Shown here piece by piece: positions 1,814-46,620 of a stretch of DNA of 64,000 bases. Source of the stretch: an uncultured Chloroflexia bacterium. Lineage in GTDB: Bacteria; Chloroflexota; Limnocylindria; QHBO01. The notes under the pieces were generated by a model, which had not been told where the DNA came from, did no database searches, and was given only the letters and a program-made list of their open reading frames with translations. The number at the start of each line of letters is the position of its first letter. The stretch's first letter is position 1. The position numbers and the translations under genes were made by a program. The DNA lies in contig CAVYRE010000001.1 of NCBI GenBank assembly GCA_963770875.1, positions 148,064 through 212,063 on the forward strand, read 5' to 3'.

Positions 1814-2170
1814 ATGTCTCGCGAAGAGCGGCGCGCCTACCAGCGCCTCACCAAGAAGCAGGACCCGTACGCGCTCCCGTCGAGCGGACCCGCCCGGGCG
1901 CGGATCCAGCGCCAGGAGGCGATCCGGGCGCGACGCGCCGCCGCGGCCGCGAGCACGCCGCCGGGCAGCCTGTCGCGACGGTTCCTCTATTGGGCGCTCG
2001 GGGGCGCGGCCGGTGCCGCGCTGGTCGCCTTCTCTCTCGCCTGGCCGAGCGGGATGCCGTTCGCGGCGTACGTCGGGGCTGGCGTGGGCGTCGCCTGGGT
2101 CGCGCTGGCGTTCGGCGTCCGGGCGTTCGGCGGCCGCGCGTTCGGCGGCCGCGCCGCTCCCCGGCGCTAG
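1814..2170 (+). CDS. small hypothetical membrane protein (contains 15-bp tandem repeat RAFGG)
   Basis: ORF with hydrophobic stretch LGGAAGAALVAFSLAWPSG...GVGVAWVALAFGV; divergent from aceE. Confidence 0.4.
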   Translation: MSREERRAYQRLTKKQDPYALPSSGPARARIQRQEAIRARRAAAAASTPPGSLSRRFLYWALGGAAGAALVAFSLAWPSGMPFAAYVGAGVGVAWVALAFGVRAFGGRAFGGRAAPRR

Positions 2171-2197
2171 CCTGCCGCGACGCCTGGGGGCTCGACG

Positions 2198-2824
2198 GTG
2201 ACCGGCCTCCCGGGGGCTGCGATCGTCCTCGCCATTGGCTATCTGATCGGGGCGCTGCCATTCGGGCTGCTCATCGGCCGGCTGGCGGGTGGTGTCGACC
2301 TGCGGCAGCACGGCTCCGGTCGGACCGGCGCCACGAACGCGCTGCGCACCGTGGGCCTGGCCGGCGCGGTGGCCACCTTCCTGCTCGACCTCGGCAAGGG
2401 AGTCGCCGCGGTCCTGGTCGCGCGCTGGCTCTACGCCGCGGGCCCGGCCGGGTCGCCGGACTGGGTCGCCGCCGCAGCCGGCGTCGCGGCGATCGCGGGG
2501 CACATCCGCTCGATCTTCATCGGATTCCGGGGAGGGCGCGGCGTGGCCACCTTCGCCGGGGCGATGCTGGCCACCTCGCCGTGGACCGTGGTGGTCGTGG
2601 TGCCGCTCGTCGCGCTGGTGGTGCTGCGGACGCGGATCGTCTCGCTCGGCTCGCTCACCGGCTCGCTCGTCGCGCCCCTGATCACCGCCTTGCTGGTGCC
2701 GTTCGGCCAGGCGACGTGGGCCGGGGTGGCGCTTGGGGTGGGAGGGGCGGCGCTGGTCACGGCCGCGCACGCCGACAACATTGCCCGGCTGCGAGCCGGC
2801 ACCGAGCGGCGCATCGGCCGATGA
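2198..2824 (+). CDS. plsY: glycerol-3-phosphate acyltransferase PlsY
   Basis: GTG start; GSGRTGATNALR motif (PlsY GSGNxGATN signature), multi-pass membrane profile. Confidence 0.85.
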   Translation: MTGLPGAAIVLAIGYLIGALPFGLLIGRLAGGVDLRQHGSGRTGATNALRTVGLAGAVATFLLDLGKGVAAVLVARWLYAAGPAGSPDWVAAAAGVAAIAGHIRSIFIGFRGGRGVATFAGAMLATSPWTVVVVVPLVALVVLRTRIVSLGSLTGSLVAPLITALLVPFGQATWAGVALGVGGAALVTAAHADNIARLRAGTERRIGR

Positions 2825-3426
2825 GCGCGCAGCGGCCCCGCCTCACCACCCTGCCGAACCTGCTCGGCCTGGCGCGCATCCTCGCCACCCCGGTGGTGGT
2901 GGCGCTCCTCCTGGTGCCGTTCCCCGGCGCCGGCCTGATCGCATTCGTGGTCTTCGTGGCGGCCGCAATGACCGACTACTTCGACGGCCGCATCGCGCGG
3001 GCCCGGAACCAGGTCTCGCCGCTCGGGATCTTCCTCGACCTGACCGCCGACAAGGTCCTGGTCGCCGGCGTCCTCATCGCGATGGTCGAGGTGGGGCTCC
3101 TCCCGACCTGGATCGTGGCCACCCTGCTCGTCCGCGAGCTGGCGGTGCAGGGGGTGCGACAGCTCGCCGCCTCGGCCAGCGTGGTGATCTCGGCGCGCGG
3201 CCTCGGCAAGTGGAAGGCGTTCGGGACGAACCTGGCGATCGGGGTGCTCCTGCTCGCCTTCGACGCGCAGACCGGCGGCCCGGTGGGACGCGTCGTGACC
3301 GCGTCGACCGTGCAGGCGATCGGCTTCTGGCTGTCGGTCGTGGCGGTCGTGCTGGCGGTCGTCTCCGGGGTTGCCTACCTGCGCGGCGCGCTGCCGATCC
3401 TGCTGGGCGAGGAGCGTCCCGCCTAG
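2821..3426 (+). CDS. pgsA: CDP-alcohol phosphatidyltransferase (PgsA-like)
   Basis: ATGA overlap with plsY stop; motif DYFDGRIAR...GIFLDLTADK (D-x2-DG-x2-AR...G...D-x3-D); upstream part of track ORF 1990..3426 is compositionally junk, so start taken at 2821. Confidence 0.8.
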   Translation: MSAQRPRLTTLPNLLGLARILATPVVVALLLVPFPGAGLIAFVVFVAAAMTDYFDGRIARARNQVSPLGIFLDLTADKVLVAGVLIAMVEVGLLPTWIVATLLVRELAVQGVRQLAASASVVISARGLGKWKAFGTNLAIGVLLLAFDAQTGGPVGRVVTASTVQAIGFWLSVVAVVLAVVSGVAYLRGALPILLGEERPA

Positions 3427-30155: not shown

Positions 30156-30182
30156 GGACCGGCCACGCGGTAGGCTTGGGCC

Positions 30183-31559
30183 ATGACGATGACGAACAGC
30201 ACCGACCCCCTCGCCACCTTCACCGCCGACATCGCCCCGCGACCCATCCCCGCGGCGCTCCTCGCCGCCCGGCGCGACGTCATGGCGGCGGTGCGAGACC
30301 TCGCCACCCTCACCGATGCGGACCTCGCCACGGAGTGGGCCTGGACGGGCGGCAGCGAGGACGAGATCCGCTACGGCTTCTATCGGATCTACGAGGACTT
30401 CGAGCGCGCCGGCATCGATGCCGCGGCGGCGGTCCGCGCGGCGGGCAGCGACCGAGGCAGAGCGGCAGACCTGATCGCCCCGGCCACCGCCGCCCGATGG
30501 GACCTCCAGGGGATCCTGCTCCAGCTGCCGGACGCGGCCTGGGACGCGGATCCGGGCGGCGAGGAGTGGACCATGCGCCAGACGCTCGGCCACGTCATCG
30601 GCGGCCAGCGCGGCTATGGCGCGGCACACCGCCTGGTGGCAGGCGCAGGGGCTCCCGGCCAATGACGACCTGCCCAAAGGTGCGCCCTCCGTTCTGGGCG
30701 GAGCTGCCGGAGGACGAGGAAGAGGGGGCGGGCACGCCGGCCGAGGTTCGTGCCCGTCTCGACGAGCTCCTCGACCAATCCACCGAACGGCTGGCCGGCC
30801 TGCCGCCCGAGCGCCTCGCGCATCGGCACGCGCTGGGCTGGCTTCGCGGTGGACATCGGCTTCCGGATCGGCCGATGGTCGTCGCACCTCCGGGAGCACG
30901 CCATCCAGGTCGAGAAGACGATGGTGATGATCGGGCATACGCCCACGGAGGTGGACCGATTGATCCGCCTGATCCTCGCCGCGTGGGGCCAGGCGGAGGC
31001 CGTCGTCTACGGCTCGACCGGCGCCGACGAGGCGATCGCTGTCCTGGCGAGGGCCGCTGCCGAAGCAGGCGACACAGCTTCGGAGCTGATCCGGGTGGCA
31101 ACTCCTTCGCCCGCTCCGGCTCCGCCTCCTGCTGCCGCCCCTCCGCCCGTGACGCACGATGTCGAGCGGCTGCGTGCCTTCGCGGAGCGATACACGGCGG
31201 CCTGGTGCAGCATGGACCCGACCCGCGTGGCCCAGCACTTCGCTCCGGGCGGGTCGCTGACGATCAACGACGGCCCGCCGGCGATCGGTCGCGCGGCCAT
31301 CACCCAGGCGGCCAACGGCTTCTACGTCGCGCTGCCGGACATGCAGGTCTACTTCGACGACCTGGTGCTCGACGGCGACCGCATCGAGTACCACTGGACC
31401 TTCACCGGCACGAACACCGGGCCGGGCGGCACCGGCAAGCGGGTGCGGGTCAGCGGGTTCGAGGAGTGGACGGTCGACGACCACGGGCTGATCTCCACCT
31501 CGCAGGGCCACTACGACGCCGCCGAGTACGCGAGGCAGCTGGAGCACGGGATCGACTGA
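30183..31559 (+). pseudogene. DinB_2-like N-terminal domain fused to SnoaL-like C-terminal domain, >=2 frame disruptions (30640-30860)
   Basis: TLGHVIGGQRGYGAAH (frame 1), WWQAQGLPANDDLPKG / PFWAELPEDEEEGAGTPAEVRARLDELL (other frames), then SnoaL-like VTHDVERLRAFAERYTAAW...YHWTFTGTN. Confidence 0.5.
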
Positions 31560-39279: not shown

Positions 39280-39468
39280 TCAGTGGCCGAGGTGCCACCA
39301 GTCGCAGTAGCGACAGCGATACGGATGGAGCGAGCCGTCCTGGTGCCGGCCGTGGCGGGCCTCGCTCTTCGCCTCGCGGCGGGTGATGTAGAGCGCCTTC
39401 GAGGTGCAGCCGCGGTCGACCAGTGGCAGGTTCCGGTTGATGAGCTGTCGGTAGGGGATGACGGTCAT
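39280..39468 (-). CDS. small Cys-rich protein, C-terminus YRCRYCDWWHLGH (paralog 2)
   Basis: 62 aa; ~70% identical to 23801..23995; upstream region shares TTATCGG-YCCTTA and GACAG-N4-CTGTCG motifs with paralog 1. Confidence 0.55.
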   Translation of the reverse strand: MTVIPYRQLINRNLPLVDRGCTSKALYITRREAKSEARHGRHQDGSLHPYRCRYCDWWHLGH

Positions 39469-39558
39469 GCAGGGATCGTGGATGGCGACCGCGACAGCTC
39501 TCTGTCGCAGTCGTCGCTAGGTAAGGGACCGATAAGCGCCGATCCCCACCCTGTGCCG

Positions 39559-39780
39559 ATGCCATTCCGAGACCTGGTCGGCCCACACGCCCTGCGCGAG
39601 GCGGCCGACGAAGGCATCACCTTGGAGGAGATGGAGGAGACCTACGTCGACCCTGACCTCACGCGGCCATCTGTGCACGACGAGGTGCGTGAGATCCGAA
39701 CCCGATGGTTCGGGGAATCGGCGATCGAGGTCGTGGTTGATACAATCGACGGCAGAGTGGTGACGACGTGGCGGAAGTAG
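39559..39780 (+). CDS. DUF4258-like small protein (putative toxin of DUF4258/DUF2283 pair)
   Basis: 73 aa MPFRDLVGPHALREAADEGITLEEMEETYVDPDL...; 13-nt overlap with next gene. Confidence 0.5.
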   Translation: MPFRDLVGPHALREAADEGITLEEMEETYVDPDLTRPSVHDEVREIRTRWFGESAIEVVVDTIDGRVVTTWRK

Positions 39781-40043
39781 CTCGCAAGACTGACCTCCTC
39801 CTTGAGTACGACGAATCCGTCGATGCGGCCTATCTCCGCGTGAATGACCGCCCCTGGCACCACCAGGTCCGGCTCGATGACGGCCGCGGGATCAACTACG
39901 CAGCCGACGGGTCCGTGATCGGCATCGAGATCCTCTCGCCGCGCCGCATGGGCGTCCTGCTCGACGGGTTGCCGTACCCTGACGACGTTGCCCGTGTGAT
40001 GCGCTCCTGCGGCTTCCGCATCCTCGAGGGTGCCCGGGGCTAG
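39768..40043 (+). CDS. DUF2283-like small protein
   Basis: LLEYDESVDAAYLRV...GSVIGIEIL motif typical of DUF2283. Confidence 0.6.
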   Translation: MAEVARKTDLLLEYDESVDAAYLRVNDRPWHHQVRLDDGRGINYAADGSVIGIEILSPRRMGVLLDGLPYPDDVARVMRSCGFRILEGARG

Positions 40044-40057
40044 TCAACCGGCGGGCA

Positions 40058-40219
40058 TTTACGCCCAGCGTCAGTAACAGCCAAGAAGGCATCGGCGTCG
40101 TCGCGTTTTGGGCCGCAACTTGGCCGCCAGTTACGCCCAGCGTAAGCGGGCGACAAGAAGGGCACCTTCGCGGCGCGAACTTGGCCGTTAGTGACGCTGG
40201 GCGCAAATCTGCGCTCGAA
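40058..40219. repeat. REP/BIME-like composite palindromic element, locus 7 (three units)
   Basis: CATTTACGCCCAGCGTCAGTAACAGCCAAGAAG / CTTGGCCGCCAGTTACGCCCAGCGTAAGCGGGCGACAAGAAG / CTTGGCCGTTAGTGACGCTGGGCGCAAATCTGCGCTCG. Confidence 0.75.
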
Positions 40220-40273: not shown

Positions 40274-40573
40274 ATGCCCACTCCCACTACTCCCCCCAGG
40301 TCCCGCAGCTCATCGAGCTCGAAGGCGGCAGCCGACGCGGTCGGCAAGGCCATCGGGTCCATCCATCCCATCGTCAGCATGTGGCGCGACGGGCTGACCG
40401 TCATCGCGCTCGAGTCGAGCCTCGCCAATCGGGCTCCCGACTACCTCACCCTCGACCAGGCACAGGCCGATGCCGGCGTGCAGGTCCAGGAGGCCGCCAC
40501 GCAGACGGTGCCCTCGGTCGACGCCATCACCGGACCGATGCCGGTGCTCATCCTGGGCGGCCTCGAGAAGTAG
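40274..40573 (+). pseudogene. 5' fragment of a gene truncated at the left border of the low-GC islet
   Basis: Ends ...TLDQAQADAGVQVQEAATQTVPSVDAITGPMPVLILGGLEK* exactly where GC drops; reads like an N-terminal domain lacking its continuation. Confidence 0.4.
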
Positions 40574-40732
40574 ACTGGGTGGCGTTTCCAACCCGGCCCA
40601 CACCCCTACTCTTGAGCCTGCCCCGACTTCGAGGGAATGGCGTCTCCACCAAGCAGTGATCGCAGGCGTATGTGAACCGATGCCTCAAGCCAGCTGCGGA
40701 GGTCTCGTAGCTGGCCCAGGAAGCCGAATAGT

Positions 40733-42685
40733 TCAAGAATCCCCACGAGAATGAGCCCAACTGCCCCGACAACGCCCAACCAGCTCCGTCCCAGCGGAAG
40801 TTCGTAGGACGACCGTGATACTCGCGACGAGGATCAGCGGAGTAATTGCCCAATAGACTGCGGCGCCAATCCAACCAGCCCAACGGCGGGCGCGGCCGTC
40901 AATCTCGAGGTCATGGCGCCTAAGCGCTTCAATCGCGTTCGTAGCGGCAGCCTCGGCACTTGCGGTCTTCAGGTCGGCCTCTGCGCGAAGCGCATTGATG
41001 CGCACTTCATAGCTTGCGCCTAGCTCGTCGAGCTCAAAGTCCGCGCGTGCCTTGTAATCGGCGATGACTCGGTCGACGACCTCATCAAGCGTGCCCGCGT
41101 CCACGTCTTCCGGGTCGTCGTCGGGTTCTGCGGTGCGAAGGATCCTGTCCGAGACACTGGAGACGATAATTGCTGTCACCTGGTCGGGTGACAATCGATC
41201 TGCCTTGCGTAATTCATCAAGGTGCGCGAGGAATCGCCTCCACATCCTCGCCGAGGGTCGCATGGCCGCGGAGCAGAGAGCCACCAGCTGGCGGATTTGG
41301 TACTCGGAGCTCGCCACTGGCCTCTTCAGCCATGCAAGGTTGGCGAGTGCTCGAATGTGGACAATTGGGGGGACGCCCCCCTCCTTCTCGTCCTCCTCCC
41401 ACCAAACCGTTGTGTTCGTAATGACAAGGGGCGACGCGGTGGCAAAGACTACCCTCGCATCTTCAATTCGATAGGAACGGTGGCCCGCACGGAGGGTGAG
41501 CACTCCTGCAACAGAATCGACATCGTGTTCGACCCGAGGCTCCGCGATGTCATGTGTTCGTGGATCAGCTAATCGGCTTGCGAGCTTGGCTTCATCTTGT
41601 GTGTATCGAGCGACGTGTTGTGGCGCACGCCTGATGGTTAACCCCGCGGATTGAATCTCGCCTTCAAGCAACGCAGACATTTCCTGAACGTCGCTTGGCG
41701 CGTACCGTTGCGTCAGGAAATGTCGAGCCATTGACGAAGGACGAAGACTTTGTCGGCCGACCGAGGTGGCCAACTTGTCCTGGTACATCCGCAGAATCCG
41801 TTGGATCTCCTGCACGGTCTTATCGAACACCATGCAACGGATGCCGCTCGCCGCAAGGAGATCAATCGTGTCGCGCATCATCAGCCGCGGCGCAGTTCCT
41901 TCATACCCAAGCGCCTGACGCACTAGAACGGAGTCAAATACGACCGTCAGATCGACAAATCGGCGTGAGACCTCGTTGATGTCTGGCAGGAATGCGGCGT
42001 GGTAGAGGACGAGACCTTCGAGTAATCCCTGCAAGACTCCCTTGAGGCCGCGGTCCTGCTCAACCGTCTCCTCGAGGAACTGCGCAACCAGTAACGACTC
42101 GGATTTGCTGAGACCGGGCACCTCATGCTCCTCGGTCACGCCAAGAATGAGCGAAACCTGATGCTCCTCGAGGAAACGGAAAATAAGGTCGAGGGCACTC
42201 TTGGCTGTGTGCTCTAGCGTCGCGTGCTTGCGAACGTGCTCCGCAAGGGCGGCTCCTAGGCGAAGCTGCCCTGCCTCGACTGCCGCCTTGGTTTCCGAGA
42301 CATCCGGGGCCGAGAGGTCCTTGCCCGGACTGACCCTGAACCTCCCCGCATCTCTCTCTAGAATCCCGCGCCGAGCGGCGCGTTTCAGAAGGGTGCTGAC
42401 AGTCTCTTGTGGCATCGCAATGCCGTGACGGGCGGCGACCCCCTCCTGGATATCCGCGACCGTGAAATATCGACTTGGTTCGACCGACACCGCATCGAGG
42501 ACCAACGGCGAGAACATGCCAAGCTGGTCCTCCCCCTCGTCCAATCGCGCCTTAAGGAATGCCACAGTTACGAGTCCGCCGGCGCCCACGCTTGGTTTCC
42601 TCTCGGTCATCGGCCGAGCCTCACCGGTGAGGTCATTCCGTTGCTCCCGGTGAGCTTCGCTCGTTATCCGGTCATCCTCATTCAT
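40733..42685 (-). CDS. large (650 aa) uncharacterized protein with C-terminal hydrophobic helix; partner of Mrr-like nuclease
   Basis: Start MNEDDR overlaps upstream stop (GATGAATGA); lower GC/codon bias; wH-like stretch FTVADIQEGVAARHGIAMPQETVSTLLKRAARRGIL; no P-loop; C-term WAGWIGAAVYWAITPLILVASITVVL. Confidence 0.7.
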   Translation of the reverse strand: MNEDDRITSEAHREQRNDLTGEARPMTERKPSVGAGGLVTVAFLKARLDEGEDQLGMFSPLVLDAVSVEPSRYFTVADIQEGVAARHGIAMPQETVSTLLKRAARRGILERDAGRFRVSPGKDLSAPDVSETKAAVEAGQLRLGAALAEHVRKHATLEHTAKSALDLIFRFLEEHQVSLILGVTEEHEVPGLSKSESLLVAQFLEETVEQDRGLKGVLQGLLEGLVLYHAAFLPDINEVSRRFVDLTVVFDSVLVRQALGYEGTAPRLMMRDTIDLLAASGIRCMVFDKTVQEIQRILRMYQDKLATSVGRQSLRPSSMARHFLTQRYAPSDVQEMSALLEGEIQSAGLTIRRAPQHVARYTQDEAKLASRLADPRTHDIAEPRVEHDVDSVAGVLTLRAGHRSYRIEDARVVFATASPLVITNTTVWWEEDEKEGGVPPIVHIRALANLAWLKRPVASSEYQIRQLVALCSAAMRPSARMWRRFLAHLDELRKADRLSPDQVTAIIVSSVSDRILRTAEPDDDPEDVDAGTLDEVVDRVIADYKARADFELDELGASYEVRINALRAEADLKTASAEAAATNAIEALRRHDLEIDGRARRWAGWIGAAVYWAITPLILVASITVVLRTSAGTELVGRCRGSWAHSRGDS

Positions 42686-43547
42686 CGACAAGGATGTCCG
42701 CTGGTTCACGAGCACTCACGCGCCGCTCGTACGTTGCATCAATCGCATTGAGAAGGTCGAGGACACTGACCCCAGCCTCGATGGCCAGGCGAGCCATGAT
42801 TTCTCCAACTTGTCGCCCGGCTACCAGAAGGATGGGGTACCCATCGTCCTGAAGCTCTCGTTGGGCTTGAAGGGAGAAGTGACCAGTCGTAACGAAAACG
42901 CCCACCCAGCCTCGATCCAGCTTCGCCGCGAGCCTCGATAATTCGGCGACACCGCTCGCCCCCGCCTGGCATTTCGCCTGCCCGGCTACGACGATTCGCA
43001 GCGGAACTGAGCTACTCCCCAGGTCAAGTCTTCCTACAAAATCGATGCCGCGGTCGCCTGAACCTCGGCTTACCCAGCCCAACCGATACAGACCGGCATG
43101 CTCGAATGAGGCCTGCGCGACCCGCTCTGCGACCGCCTCAAACCGGCTCTTTGGCCGGTTGGCATAGAAGGCGATTGTCGTTCGGAGCGCTCCCTCGGCC
43201 GTCGACCCGGCAAGCGGCCGCTGATCGCTCTCAGACAAAATCCTGTAGCTGAGGAGGCGTTGGCGAACCTGGGCCAGCGACGCTGTGCCGCGGTCAATCC
43301 ACTGCCTCCAGGATTTGGGCGCTAGCACTAGGGTCTCGGTCAGCGTTCTTGTGGAGTCTCGGCGAGCTGCGACCCACGTCCAATCGAGCAGATTGTTCTC
43401 AGAGGCGAGGCTGAGAAGTGCGCAGTCGTATCGGTAGTTGACAAACGGTCGGCCGTGCCGGTCCACTTGCACCACGCGCTCGACGCGGTCCACTAAGCCA
43501 ACTCCTCGGAAGCGGCGGTAGCCCTTAGCGCGATTCTCTTGAATCAC
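42678..43547 (-). CDS. Mrr-type PD-(D/E)xK restriction endonuclease-domain protein with unassigned N-terminal region
   Basis: C-terminal half ...GDRGIDFVGRL...RIVVAGQAKCQ...GVFVTTGHFSLQAQRE matches Mrr_cat D/(D/E)xK layout; GTG start; upstream frames open. Confidence 0.7.
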   Translation of the reverse strand: MIQENRAKGYRRFRGVGLVDRVERVVQVDRHGRPFVNYRYDCALLSLASENNLLDWTWVAARRDSTRTLTETLVLAPKSWRQWIDRGTASLAQVRQRLLSYRILSESDQRPLAGSTAEGALRTTIAFYANRPKSRFEAVAERVAQASFEHAGLYRLGWVSRGSGDRGIDFVGRLDLGSSSVPLRIVVAGQAKCQAGASGVAELSRLAAKLDRGWVGVFVTTGHFSLQAQRELQDDGYPILLVAGRQVGEIMARLAIEAGVSVLDLLNAIDATYERRVSAREPADILVDE

Positions 43548-43999
43548 GCTCTCGAAGAAGATAAGTGGGCACGCCCGTCGCCTGTCTCGGTGTCTCCTGA
43601 GGCCGAGAGGTCAAACTGATCCAGGATCGCGCGGTTTCCTGGCGTTCGATCGGGGTTCTCACTTAGGCCGGGCTTGTTGTCACCGTAGTAGCGGACGAAA
43701 CCGTTTCGCGGGTCGATCTCATCGTGCCACGGGGTCCAGTCCTATCCAGCCTTGTGCGGATTGATACCAATCAAGATTGCCGGGCGGCGCGGCCCATCCG
43801 CCGCCGAGACCACGGTAATCGCGTCGATGCCCTTCTCGAGTTGCGCCCTCCCGCATTCTTGAGCCCCGGCCACTGTGGCCACCGCGTCGCCGCGAAGAAG
43901 CTCTCCAGCTCACCCTCAGATCGCTCAGCGATCTGCTCAGGGGCGGGCTTCGGGTACCGGTAGGTGTCATGCAGTCGCAGCACCGTGGCACTCTTCGAC
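43548..43999 (-). pseudogene. degraded coding remnants at right edge of islet
   Basis: Fragmentary frames (…WTPWHDEIDPRNGFVRYYGDNKPGLSENPDRTPGNRAILDQFDL…) interrupted by stops; may be the lost 5' part of the Mrr-like gene. Confidence 0.3.
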
Positions 44000-44915
44000 C
44001 TAACGAAGGAATCGCTCCGACGCATGCCACTCGAGAAATGCGGGATTAGGTCGAGCCTGCGGATCAACCGGCAGGCCTAGCGGTCGACCGGCGAGCGCGT
44101 AGTAGTCGCGACCGTTCTCATAGTCCTCACGGATGCGGCGACTTACTACGACCTGCATGTTTGAGCTTACGCCAAGTATCCAGCGTCGAACAGAGCATGG
44201 ACGTCCTTCCGCAAGAAGCAGGCCATTGTCAAGGCGATGCTCACCGTGCTGGGCGTAGGGCATGATGTGAGCGGCATCGAGGGCGGGTAGGGTCCGCTCG
44301 GCCGTCATGGCGCATCGGCGCTCGTAGGCATCTGTGACGGCGATGCGGAATCCGCCTTGGCCTAGCCGTGGGGCGATCAGTACCGGCGTGCCGTATCGAT
44401 CCTCGGCGATCCTGATGGCGCGAGGCTAGCAGCCGCACCCGACACCTCACGCCACACCCTGGCGCCGATCTGCATCGGCATCGCTGTACGTCTTGCCCTG
44501 GACGATGTTCGGCGCCCAGTCCTCTGGCGGCCGGACCCATCGCTCACGCGGCAGGAAGAATGGCCGGTTGAGGATCATGCAGCCGATCTCGTCGTGGGTG
44601 GCAATGATCGGCTCCTGCCTGTAGCGCTGGACGCGCGTGAGCATCTCCTCTGCGTCGCCGCCCCGTTCTTCTCCTCGAATGCTTCCCACGCGAGGTAGAT
44701 CGGGACCTTCGGTGAAGGGCCGAGCGACAAGCCACCGCCGACGAGGAACCCTCCGTCGCGAGGCGTGGAGCTTGAATAGGAAGGGGGCACCGGCAGGTAA
44801 GGGTCACCGGCGCGCGCCGAGCGCTTGGCTGCCAGAAGTTGACCTCGTCAAGATCCGGGCGCGCCGCTAGAAATCGATACCAGTCGCAGTCGGTGATTCC
44901 GATCCAGAACCGCAT
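44000..44915 (-). pseudogene. HNH endonuclease family gene with >=2 frame disruptions
   Basis: N-part MRFWIGITDCDWYRFLAARPDLDEVNFWQPS, middle YRQEPIIATHDEIGCMILNRPFFLPRERWVRPPEDWAPNIVQGKTYS, C-part LPALDAAHIMPYAQHGEHRLDNGLLL (HNH motif) in three different frames. Confidence 0.55.
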
Positions 44916-45026
44916 GGTGGCTCCATCGTAGGTCGCGTTTGTGGGCACGGGAAGACGGGATAGGTCCCATCGGGTCTGGGGCGCTAGTGCAGCTATGGCA
45001 AGTGGCCAATGGCAGAGTAGCCGCCC

Positions 45027-46014
45027 ATGAAAGCCGCCGTCCGATACCGATATGGGACGCCCGACGTCGTTCGGGTCGAGGAGCTGCGACACGCCGGTCC
45101 CGGCCGAGGGCGAGGTGCTCGTTCGGACTCCGGGCCGCATCGGTCAACCGGGCTGACCTCGACGACATCCAGCCGCGCCCCCAGTTCGTGCGCCTCTTCA
45201 TGGGGCTGCGGGCACCGCGCCAGCCCCAGATCGGCGTCGACGTCGCCGGGGTGGTCGAGGCGGTGGGCGCCGGCGTGACCCGCTTCCGCCCCGGTGACGA
45301 GGTCTTCGCCGACCTGTTCGCCGCCGGCCACGTGGGCGCCTTCGCCGAGTACGTGTCCGCGCCGGAGAAGGCCTTCCAGCCGATGCCGCCGGGCATGAGC
45401 TTCACCGACGCCGCCACCCTGCCGCACTCGGCGATCCTGGCGCTCCAGGGGCTGCGGACCCGCAAGGGCCGGACCGTGCAGGCGGGGGAGAAGGTGCTGG
45501 TGGTGGGCGCATCGGGCAATGTCGGGCCGTTCGCGGTCCAGATCGCGAAGGCGCTGGGCGCGGAGGTGACCGGCGTCTGCAGCCGCGCCAAGGTCGACTT
45601 CGTGCGCTCGCTCGGGGCCGATGAGGTCCTCAGCTACACCGACGTCAACTTCACGCGCATGGGCCGGCAGTGGGACTGGATCCTCGACACCGATTCGCAC
45701 CACTCGATCTTCGCCGTGCGCCGCGCGCTGCGGCCCGGCGGGCAGGTACGTGACGCTGGGCGGGGAGGCCGGGCCGCTGTTCGGGGCGCTGCTGGGCGGG
45801 CCGCTCATCGGCCTGTTCAGCGACAAGCACCTGGGCCTGATGATCTGGTGGAAGCCGATGCACCCGCCCGACGTGGATCGGCTCAAGGAGCTGATCGCGG
45901 CGGGGAAGGTGCGGCCGGTGATCGACCGGACGCTACCCGCTGAGCGAGATCGTGGATGCGCTGAAGTGGGTCAACGACGGCCACGCCCGCGGCAAGGTGG
46001 TCATCACGTTCTAG
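45027..46014 (+). pseudogene. zinc-type alcohol dehydrogenase/quinone oxidoreductase (MDR family) with three frame disruptions
   Basis: MKAAVRYRYGTPDVVRVEEL... / ...ASVNRADLDD...GAFAEYVSAPE...VLVVGASGNVGPFAVQIAKALGAEV... / ...GGRYVTLGGEAGP... / ...PLSEIVDALKWVNDGHARGKVVITF* across three frames. Confidence 0.6.
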
Positions 46015-46169
46015 GGCGTGGACGGCCGACCCAGCCGTGGCTGCTGTCGGAGCCTGGTCGTGCAGGTGTGCTGCACGAACGCACGAGTGCACGATGAGCC
46101 TTGACGGCGCGAGCCTCCCCTGAATTCGGCTAAGCCGCCGATAAGCGGTCGTCGCTACGGTGCGGCGGC

Positions 46170-46442
46170 ATGGAGTTCGAGTGGGATCCACGGAAGGCGG
46201 AGCAGAACGTCCGGAAGCACGGGGTCGCCTTTGAGGATGCCATCACCATCTTCGCGGACCCCGACGAACTCATGATCTATGACCCGGACCATTCCTTGAC
46301 CGAAGATCGGTTCGTGAGCGTCGGCAGGTCCAGGTCTGGCCGGCTGTTGGTGGTGGGCTACACCGAGCGCGGGAGTAAGATCCGAATCATCTTCGCGAGG
46401 CGGGCAACAGCACCCGAGATGCTTGACTATGAAGAAGTCTGA
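46170..46442 (+). CDS. brnT: BrnT-family ribonuclease toxin
   Basis: MEFEWDPRKAEQNVRKHGVAFEDAITIFADPDELMIYDPDHS...RIIFARRA. Confidence 0.8.
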   Translation: MEFEWDPRKAEQNVRKHGVAFEDAITIFADPDELMIYDPDHSLTEDRFVSVGRSRSGRLLVVGYTERGSKIRIIFARRATAPEMLDYEEV

Positions 46443-46620
46443 TAGCGAGACGCGGGAGGAGTACGACTTCCGCACCGGAACCCGAGGCCACCATCATCGC
46501 AAGGTGGCTGGGGAGGGCCGGTTGGTCCGCCTCGACCCTGATGTGGCGGTGCGGTTTCCGACGTCTGAAGCAGTGAACGAGGCCCTGCGGTCCCTGCCTC
46601 GTCGCCGACCCCAGGACTGA
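46423..46620 (+). CDS. brnA: BrnA-family antitoxin
   Basis: Small protein overlapping brnT 3' end, EEYDFRTG... typical BrnA context. Confidence 0.65.
   Translation: MTMKKSDSETREEYDFRTGTRGHHHRKVAGEGRLVRLDPDVAVRFPTSEAVNEALRSLPRRRPQD

Follow-up and report, generated by a model that had tools for sequence, protein, structure and literature searches.

Gene content and composition of the islet

A stretch of 64,000 nt from an uncultured Chloroflexia bacterium (assembly GCA_963770875.1, contig CAVYRE010000001.1, positions 148,064 to 212,063), here called the window, contains an islet of low guanine-plus-cytosine (GC) content at 40560-44915; coordinates are those of the window throughout. Three genes lie on the minus strand of this islet, and all three are damaged. 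They are an HNH_2 endonuclease pseudogene (44006..44915), a pseudogene of a modification-dependent restriction enzyme of the AspBHI/MspJI type (42678..44025), and a large gene (40606..42610 as reconstructed) whose product has a winged helix, a PIN domain, a coiled coil and two membrane helices. An earlier note on this DNA had described a 289-aa Mrr-type nuclease and a 650-aa partner as a candidate defence module. Our result for the locus is mainly corrective: the apparent two-gene system consists of a restriction enzyme of a known type, its HNH neighbour and an unrelated, seemingly inserted gene, and there is no two-gene module as such.

The composition marks the segment as foreign. GC content is 0.609 in 40575-44000, compared with 0.699 for the whole window, and over the full islet it is 0.615, a value reached by only 2 of 597 windows of equal size (mean 0.697, standard deviation 0.024). 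In a sliding-window profile the GC content falls from about 0.70 to 0.56-0.63 between approximately 40600 and 44900. The GC content of third codon positions (GC3) is 0.66 in both the 289-aa open reading frame (ORF) and the large ORF, as against 0.85-0.95 in surrounding genes. The GC dip and shifted codon choice that the earlier note had judged by eye are therefore real. Its right border at about 44000 has to be moved, however, as the islet runs to approximately 44915.

At the left, the islet borders on a truncated gene of the ARPP-1 family (40274..40573, plus strand), which retains the N-terminal 99 aa only and matches Pfam PF20208 at profile positions 11-69 of 297 (E 1.8e-4, below the curated cut-off). 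Nucleotide homology with syntenic relatives, as determined by blastn, stops at 40559. The truncated ORF is preceded by a cluster of repeats resembling repetitive extragenic palindromes (REP), and the left border thus stands as first drawn.

The restriction gene and its HNH neighbour

Using the proteins P0121, P0122 and P0124 as tblastn queries, the restriction gene was placed at 44025..42681 in three frames. Residues 6-58 of P0121 (448 aa) align to 44004..43849, residues 53-146 to 43867..43586, and residues 144-448 to 43595..42681, and P0124 carries the first piece out to 44025. The gene is thus interrupted by two frameshifts, at about 43849-43867 and at 43586-43600, and by one nonsense codon, a TAG at 43744-43742 where relatives have Ser. 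The stretch 43548-44025, which had been taken for degraded frames at the right border, is the N-terminal third of this gene. The 289-aa ORF (42678..43547, minus strand) is therefore a gene remnant, the surviving C-terminal two thirds of the enzyme and not a whole protein.

The remnant comprises the end of the AspBHI N-terminal domain and the Mrr catalytic domain. Pfam Mrr_cat is matched above the cut-off (E 6.6e-9), in agreement with the Mrr-type assignment made earlier. The N-terminal region that could not then be placed, and for which a sensing role had been suggested, matches RE_AspBHI_N at profile positions 111-185 of 185; a sensing domain of unknown kind is absent. Against the PADLOC family mREase_II (PDLC03206), the 289-aa ORF covers positions 146-433 of 434; reading across the lesions in three frames gives a reconstruction of 388 aa, for which the score is 396 instead of 285 bits and the match extends over positions 45-433. 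The reconstructed protein aligns over 100% of its length with intact proteins of 433-454 aa carrying PF18062 and PF04471, and is 80-83% identical to intact proteins of 443-454 aa with both domains.

In the AspBHI/MspJI family of type IIM / type IV enzymes an N-terminal SRA-like domain recognises the modified cytosine, and a C-terminal Mrr-type nuclease with the motif D...QAK cuts nearby. This motif is intact in the 289-aa ORF (GDRGIDF ... AGQAKCQ). The AspBHI-type recognition domain is present only when the gene is read across the lesions, and the window gene does not have the uninterrupted frame of about 430-455 aa found in the family; the source annotation gives a 271-aa product (P0130) for the remnant, and the 289-aa version has no exact entry in the protein collection. 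The nuclease is an ordinary member of this known family, and here a pseudogene. The motif (Q/E)AK defines the MspJI subfamily, and D...QAK is essential in MspJI (Zheng et al. 2010, PMC2938202). Like the window gene, members of the family are reported to be solitary or to lie in transposon-rich, horizontally moved DNA, the only neighbourhoods described being methyltransferase neighbours and transposase islands (PMC2938202). A conserved multi-gene neighbourhood with a large protein of the present kind is not reported in that paper.

In contrast to these descriptions, the restriction gene in this clade has an HNH_2 gene just upstream with its end overlapping the restriction-gene start, an arrangement unmentioned in PMC2938202. 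The HNH pseudogene proposed earlier at this place is real: the intact HNH_2 proteins of loci L034 and L035 (303 and 305 aa) align to 44915..44784 and 44800..44006, with several frameshifted stretches and two in-frame stops. The pseudogene matches PADLOC HNH PDLC04132 (E 3.3e-14); the N-terminal half of the HNH protein has no domain assignment. L034 (965-3216 for the two genes), L035 (6881-9137) and L036 (1573-3829) each have an intact HNH_2 gene (303-305 aa) immediately before the AspBHI-like gene, and L035 also shows the overlap; L037 begins inside the AspBHI-like gene. The order is thus kept, besides the window, in two close lineages (L034, and the near-identical L035 and L036), but not at 63% identity, where the nuclease homologue (L047) stands alone. 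The conserved neighbour of the nuclease is the upstream HNH gene, not the large protein. HNH_2 and the AspBHI-like enzyme may form a pair of two modification-dependent nucleases.

In L034 the AspBHI-like gene (1851-3216) is likewise split by a frameshift, into ORFs of 187 and 271 aa. The break lies at about residue 153-156 of P0121, approximately 10 codons from the second frameshift of the window gene and at a different site. Within this clade the AspBHI-like gene seems to have decayed more than once, independently.

Start, end and lesion of the large gene

The large open frame as it stands spans 40733..42715 on the minus strand and encodes 660 aa from GTG 42715, 650 aa from ATG 42685, or 625 aa from ATG 42610. 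The second of these starts gives the 8-nt overlap with the nuclease ORF from which translational coupling had been proposed. The ORFs do overlap as written, but translation likely begins at ATG 42610, 67 nt beyond the stop of the restriction gene, for four reasons. In an alignment with 42 homologues, residues 1-25 of the 650-aa version stand unmatched, as the homologues begin at the position of ATG 42610; the source annotation gives a 625-aa product (P0001) from this ATG; a Shine-Dalgarno-like GGTGAGG lies 8 nt upstream of it; and ATG 42685, in GATGAATGA, is part of the conserved codons with which the restriction gene ends and where relatives without the large gene read GACGAATGA. The 8-nt overlap is probably fortuitous.

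At its other end the frame has been shifted. The homologue P0002 (74% identical) aligns in frame over residues 1-613, and its residues 604-668 align in another frame at 40803..40609 (E 3e-15), which places a 1-nt insertion or deletion (indel) within approximately 40795-40810, outside any homopolymer run, and the true stop at 40608-40606. As it stands, the frame ends in 22 unrelated residues, so that its C-terminus is divergent and short in comparison with the 42 homologues, and hydropathy analysis finds one membrane segment where homologues have two. The single C-terminal hydrophobic helix noted earlier is hence a product of the frameshift, the missing part lying out of frame at 40803..40609. 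The window copy is probably inactive, because it has lost, through the indel, both the second membrane helix and the helix at the C-terminus.

Two other members of the family are interrupted. In L022 (10004-11936) there is a frameshift near residue 215, and in L027 (10001-13400) the homologue aligns in two parts with about 1.5 kb between them. Intact copies on record include P0002, P0006, P0087, the gene WP_258336611.1 on Klebsiella quasipneumoniae plasmid pKA1-2, and a gene on an Enterococcus faecium plasmid.

Domains and family of the large protein

AlphaFold2 models (pLDDT 79 for the window protein, 82 for P0002) contain a PIN fold. The layout runs from an N-terminal winged helix through a VapC-like PIN domain, helices, an acidic linker and a coiled coil of 70-100 residues to a C-terminal two-helix membrane hairpin. 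The winged helix had already been noticed in the earlier note; the PIN domain had been overlooked. An alignment of 43 sequences shows no variation at D251, E293, H387 and D388; D288 and D390 are kept in at least 90% of them, and D251, E293 and D388 recur even in plasmid homologues at 20-27% identity. Two membrane helices are found in intact members, distant ones included.

Sequence searches with the large protein gave no match to Pfam or NCBIfam at threshold, and no PADLOC-DB v2 family at E<=1 for the window protein; among its relatives PADLOC gave only chance matches of the coiled-coil type. A profile of the family alignment likewise yielded coiled-coil chance matches only when compared with sequences of solved structures. 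No Pfam PIN model was matched by the window protein or by 43 relatives, and the sole curated PIN match was PIN_3 in the E. faecium plasmid homologue (E 5.7e-4, below the cut-off). Weak matches to the Penicillinase_R winged helix were seen in 18 of 43 members, and JGI labels some members "predicted transcriptional regulator". As first supposed, the protein falls in no described family; it represents a variant of PIN-domain proteins that has no name as yet, and its fixed architecture of 650-700 aa is new.

Close relatives, more than 189 of them at 45-74% identity, come from many phyla, and none has Pfam domains. A profile search at E<=1e-3 returned 3,712 cluster representatives, with few exceptions 600-700 aa long; at E<=1e-30 the number was 1,409. 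These approximately 3,700 clusters (at 50% identity) extend from Actinomycetota to plasmids of Klebsiella and Enterococcus. The plasmid homologues at 20-27% identity, all annotated "hypothetical protein", come from Klebsiella, Pantoea, Enterococcus faecium, Sporosarcina, Hymenobacter and Arthrobacter, and the Klebsiella and E. faecium copies have the same layout as the family of the window protein.

Two known groups of proteins invite comparison. With VapC-type PIN toxins (Rickettsia felis VapC2, 3zvk; Mycobacterium tuberculosis VapC21, 5sv2), the large protein shares an Asp after strand 1, a Glu in the next helix and an Asp in a later helix. Sequence identity is only about 10%, however, the PIN domain is embedded in 660 aa with a winged helix, coiled coil and membrane hairpin, and no VapB-like antitoxin gene is adjacent. 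The C-terminal hairpin, followed by an amphipathic helix and joined to a sensor or enzyme part, recalls the SLATT / DUF4231-type modules, which Burroughs et al. are said to have described in 2015 as two-helix membrane effectors of conflict systems. Among 30 C-terminal segments of the family, two matched DUF4231 (E ~1e-3) and three DUF2207_C, and other weak matches were scattered over unrelated membrane families. The segments point to no consistent Pfam family, and the hairpin may be either a plain anchor or an effector.

The extra 2.1-kb segment

In the syntenic relatives L035, L036 and L037, 19 nt separate the restriction-gene stop from sequence matching the window from 40559 downwards. The 2,118 bp that the window has beyond this junction (40560..42677, GC 0.602) contain exactly the large gene, on the minus strand, and nothing else, so that the large gene lies in extra DNA and these relatives carry the nuclease without it. 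The flanks are 86-94% identical between L035-L037 and the window, the HNH-nuclease segment 74%. The truncated ARPP-1 fragment is also kept in the three relatives, at 94% identity, and its truncation is for this reason older than the difference in the large gene.

Neighbourhoods of the large gene

Co-occurrence was assessed in 31 loci, each consisting of a homologue of the large protein and up to 10 kb on either side. With the reconstructed nuclease and the HNH protein as tblastn queries, nothing was found in any of the 31, and by the earlier note's own standard the proposed module of nuclease and large partner fails. All-against-all clustering of the 536 neighbouring ORFs produced only HsdM (4 loci), IstB (3 loci) and one further cluster of 3 loci; neither a conserved partner nor a conserved small antitoxin gene stands beside the large gene in this sample. 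Members of the family stand alone, in variable islets and on plasmids, and no partner is conserved beside them.

A Pfam and PADLOC census of 91 neighbouring proteins, which gives no per-locus statistics, was heterogeneous, with type I restriction-modification as the only repeated theme. Genes of this kind are found in L001, L021, L025 and L028. In L001 HsdM, AbiEii, HsdS and HsdR are encoded immediately upstream of the homologue. HigB/HigA and transposases were found in L002; HEPN, SMODS, UDG, a SLFN-helicase fragment and ResIII in L032, the locus of the closest relative; DUF4238 and BrnT in L033; Phd/PIN_3 and a nucleotidyltransferase in L043; and DUF4238 in L044 and L045. Nothing recognisable was seen in L041 and L042. 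DUF4238 is a domain known from a defence gene in the literature, and a gene with it stands a few kb at most from the large-protein homologue in two lineages that are not related (L033 289-1377; L044 10136-11170 and L045 5078-6112). Plasmid copies sit among insertion sequence (IS) elements and resistance genes. With regard to a phage origin, tblastn of 50,697 phage records gave no match to the large protein, and IMG/VR contigs gave one; the gene is practically missing from phages.

Origin of the islet and proposed function of the large protein

We consider the islet, with a probability of about 70%, to be composite, decaying foreign DNA in which a broken pair of HNH_2 and AspBHI/MspJI genes is accompanied by a separate, solitary large gene, the family of which is likely a membrane-anchored PIN nuclease acting in defence. 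A first layer would be the HNH_2 gene followed by the AspBHI/MspJI-type gene, set against the truncated ARPP-1 gene here and in relatives; a second would be the 2.1-kb one-gene segment immediately after the restriction-gene stop, missing in close relatives. The islet is most readily understood as a decaying defence islet, with its restriction genes dead and its large gene without the second helix. Both the foreign composition and the frequent placement of homologues beside restriction-modification, toxin-antitoxin and other defence genes bear out the horizontally acquired, defence-type content that the earlier note had supposed.

We regard the large gene as a candidate for defence by a single protein, and for its product infer nuclease activity, a defence role and a trigger. 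Members of the family would be self-contained, membrane-anchored PIN nucleases for defence or abortive infection. The winged helix or the coiled coil would hold the nuclease inactive until the trigger arrives, upon which it would cut RNA and arrest the infected cell.

Several points weigh against this explanation. The function proposed for the large protein was deduced from sequence and predicted structure. The fourth acidic residue usual in PIN domains, VapC toxins included, is not conserved, and the family has T-x-S/N rather than T-x-D. Two of nine Pfam-annotated chromosomal contexts (L041 and L042) are without defence genes, and such counts were made without a background rate around random genes. 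The single-base indel in the large gene could be an assembly error. Finally, the extra segment may stem either from insertion in the window or from deletion in the relatives: comparison of the junction sequences of 40560-42677 revealed no target-site duplication, a repeat search no flanking direct repeats at the islet, and the window has no tRNA gene and no integrase that we could find.

PIN nucleases without a cognate antitoxin have been validated in defence. DS-3, a single protein of 340 aa with a split PIN domain, acts without an antitoxin, and the 376-aa PIN protein of DS-5 needs a second protein; in both systems defence is lost upon mutation of PIN catalytic residues, and auto-inhibition until infection was proposed by the authors (DefensePredictor; PMC13092281). 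The large protein resembles DS-3 and DS-5 in having a PIN nuclease without such an antitoxin. It differs from them in size and layout, neither being described with a winged helix or membrane hairpin, a distinction drawn from the descriptions.

A more far-reaching version of our explanation is that the family constitutes a new, widespread, single-gene abortive-infection system, in which a membrane-anchored PIN RNase is held in check by its own N-terminal and coiled-coil parts, is freed by an infection cue and serves as a back-up when restriction fails. The large gene stands directly after restriction operons in the window, L001, L025 and L028. PrrC is known to back up EcoprrI, and the placement would reflect a comparable role. 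This version is possible, but we regard it as speculative.

The alternative that survives best is that the family has no connection with defence. The protein might be a membrane-tethered winged-helix regulator, or might serve the maintenance of or addiction to mobile elements, with the PIN domain as a module for RNA binding, oligomerisation or self-regulation. This would fit the solitary occurrence on plasmids amid IS elements and genes for replication and resistance, the contexts of L041 and L042, the "transcriptional regulator" labels with the weak Penicillinase_R matches, and the lack of a PADLOC match. Yet the invariant D/E/D set speaks for catalysis over a scaffold, members recur beside restriction-modification and toxin-antitoxin genes, and the patchy distribution over many phyla at 45-74% identity indicates frequent horizontal transfer. 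On balance we find a role outside defence unlikely.

That the lesions are sequencing or assembly errors, so that the HNH, AspBHI-like and large genes would be intact as three independent, working defence genes, is considerably less probable. The frameshift of the large gene is indeed a change of a single base, and the source annotation calls products for both remaining frames (P0001, P0130). Nevertheless, at least three in-frame stops (the TAG at 43744-43742 and two in the HNH gene) are substitutions and not indels, and the large-gene indel lies outside a homopolymer run. About 10 lesions fall within 4.3 kb, whereas no interruption is seen in other ORFs of the window, of 1,087, 743, 601 and 551 aa, whose GC3 is normal. 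The lower identity of the HNH-nuclease segment to relatives, compared with that of the flanks, is moreover as expected under relaxed constraint.

Least credible of all is the translationally coupled defence system of the earlier note, with the Mrr-type nuclease as effector and the large protein as sensor or membrane partner: the ORFs are adjacent on the same strand, overlap by 8 nt from ATG 42685 and both lie in low-GC DNA, but they co-occur in 0 of 31 loci with no conserved neighbour, the nuclease is found without the large gene in L035-L037 and alone in L047, the pair is absent from L034, the nuclease gene is broken, and the overlapping ATG lies inside conserved nuclease codons, homologues starting 25 codons later.

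With the islet understood as decaying composite DNA, its remaining value lies in the family of the large protein, which is very large and strongly conserved, occurs across phyla and on clinical plasmids, and combines a catalytically plausible PIN domain with a membrane hairpin. Deduced as its function is, and damaged as the window copy is, the family makes a reasonable lead for experiment. If it does act in defence, the few validated PIN-based systems of a single protein would be joined by a membrane-anchored class.

Flanking regions

In the REP-like cluster to the left of the islet (40045..40208, no strand) a 29-nt unit occurs three times, at 40045, 40117 and 40178, and an inverted pair at 40057-40085 and 40180-40208 is 90% complementary. 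A DUF2283 gene (39768) and neighbouring small ORFs (39610-40045 and 39282-39511) show 84-90% nucleotide identity in L035-L037. A scan of 40400-45300 for promoters and terminators gave nothing beyond shuffled expectation.

To the right of the islet, a BrnT toxin gene lies at 46170-46620 on the plus strand (Pfam E 4.7e-26). It is followed by an overlapping 65-aa ORF at the position expected for the antitoxin BrnA, without a Pfam match. The earlier description of the islet as lying among toxin-antitoxin loci is only partly right, as it is the BrnT and DUF2283 genes that flank the region.

Between the islet and the BrnT gene, a gene for a zinc-type alcohol dehydrogenase / quinone oxidoreductase (ADH_N, ADH_zinc_N; 45027-46100, plus strand) is apparently split over three frames, in the ORFs 45027..45278, 44939..45943 and 45621..46097. 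The GC content of this DNA is 0.71, and the stretch of pseudogenes therefore seems to reach past the low-GC islet into DNA of normal GC content. Farther away, the ORFs 30174..30665 and 30666..31559 (plus strand) abut exactly in different frames, both with a GC3 of 0.89, and may represent another frameshifted gene outside the islet.

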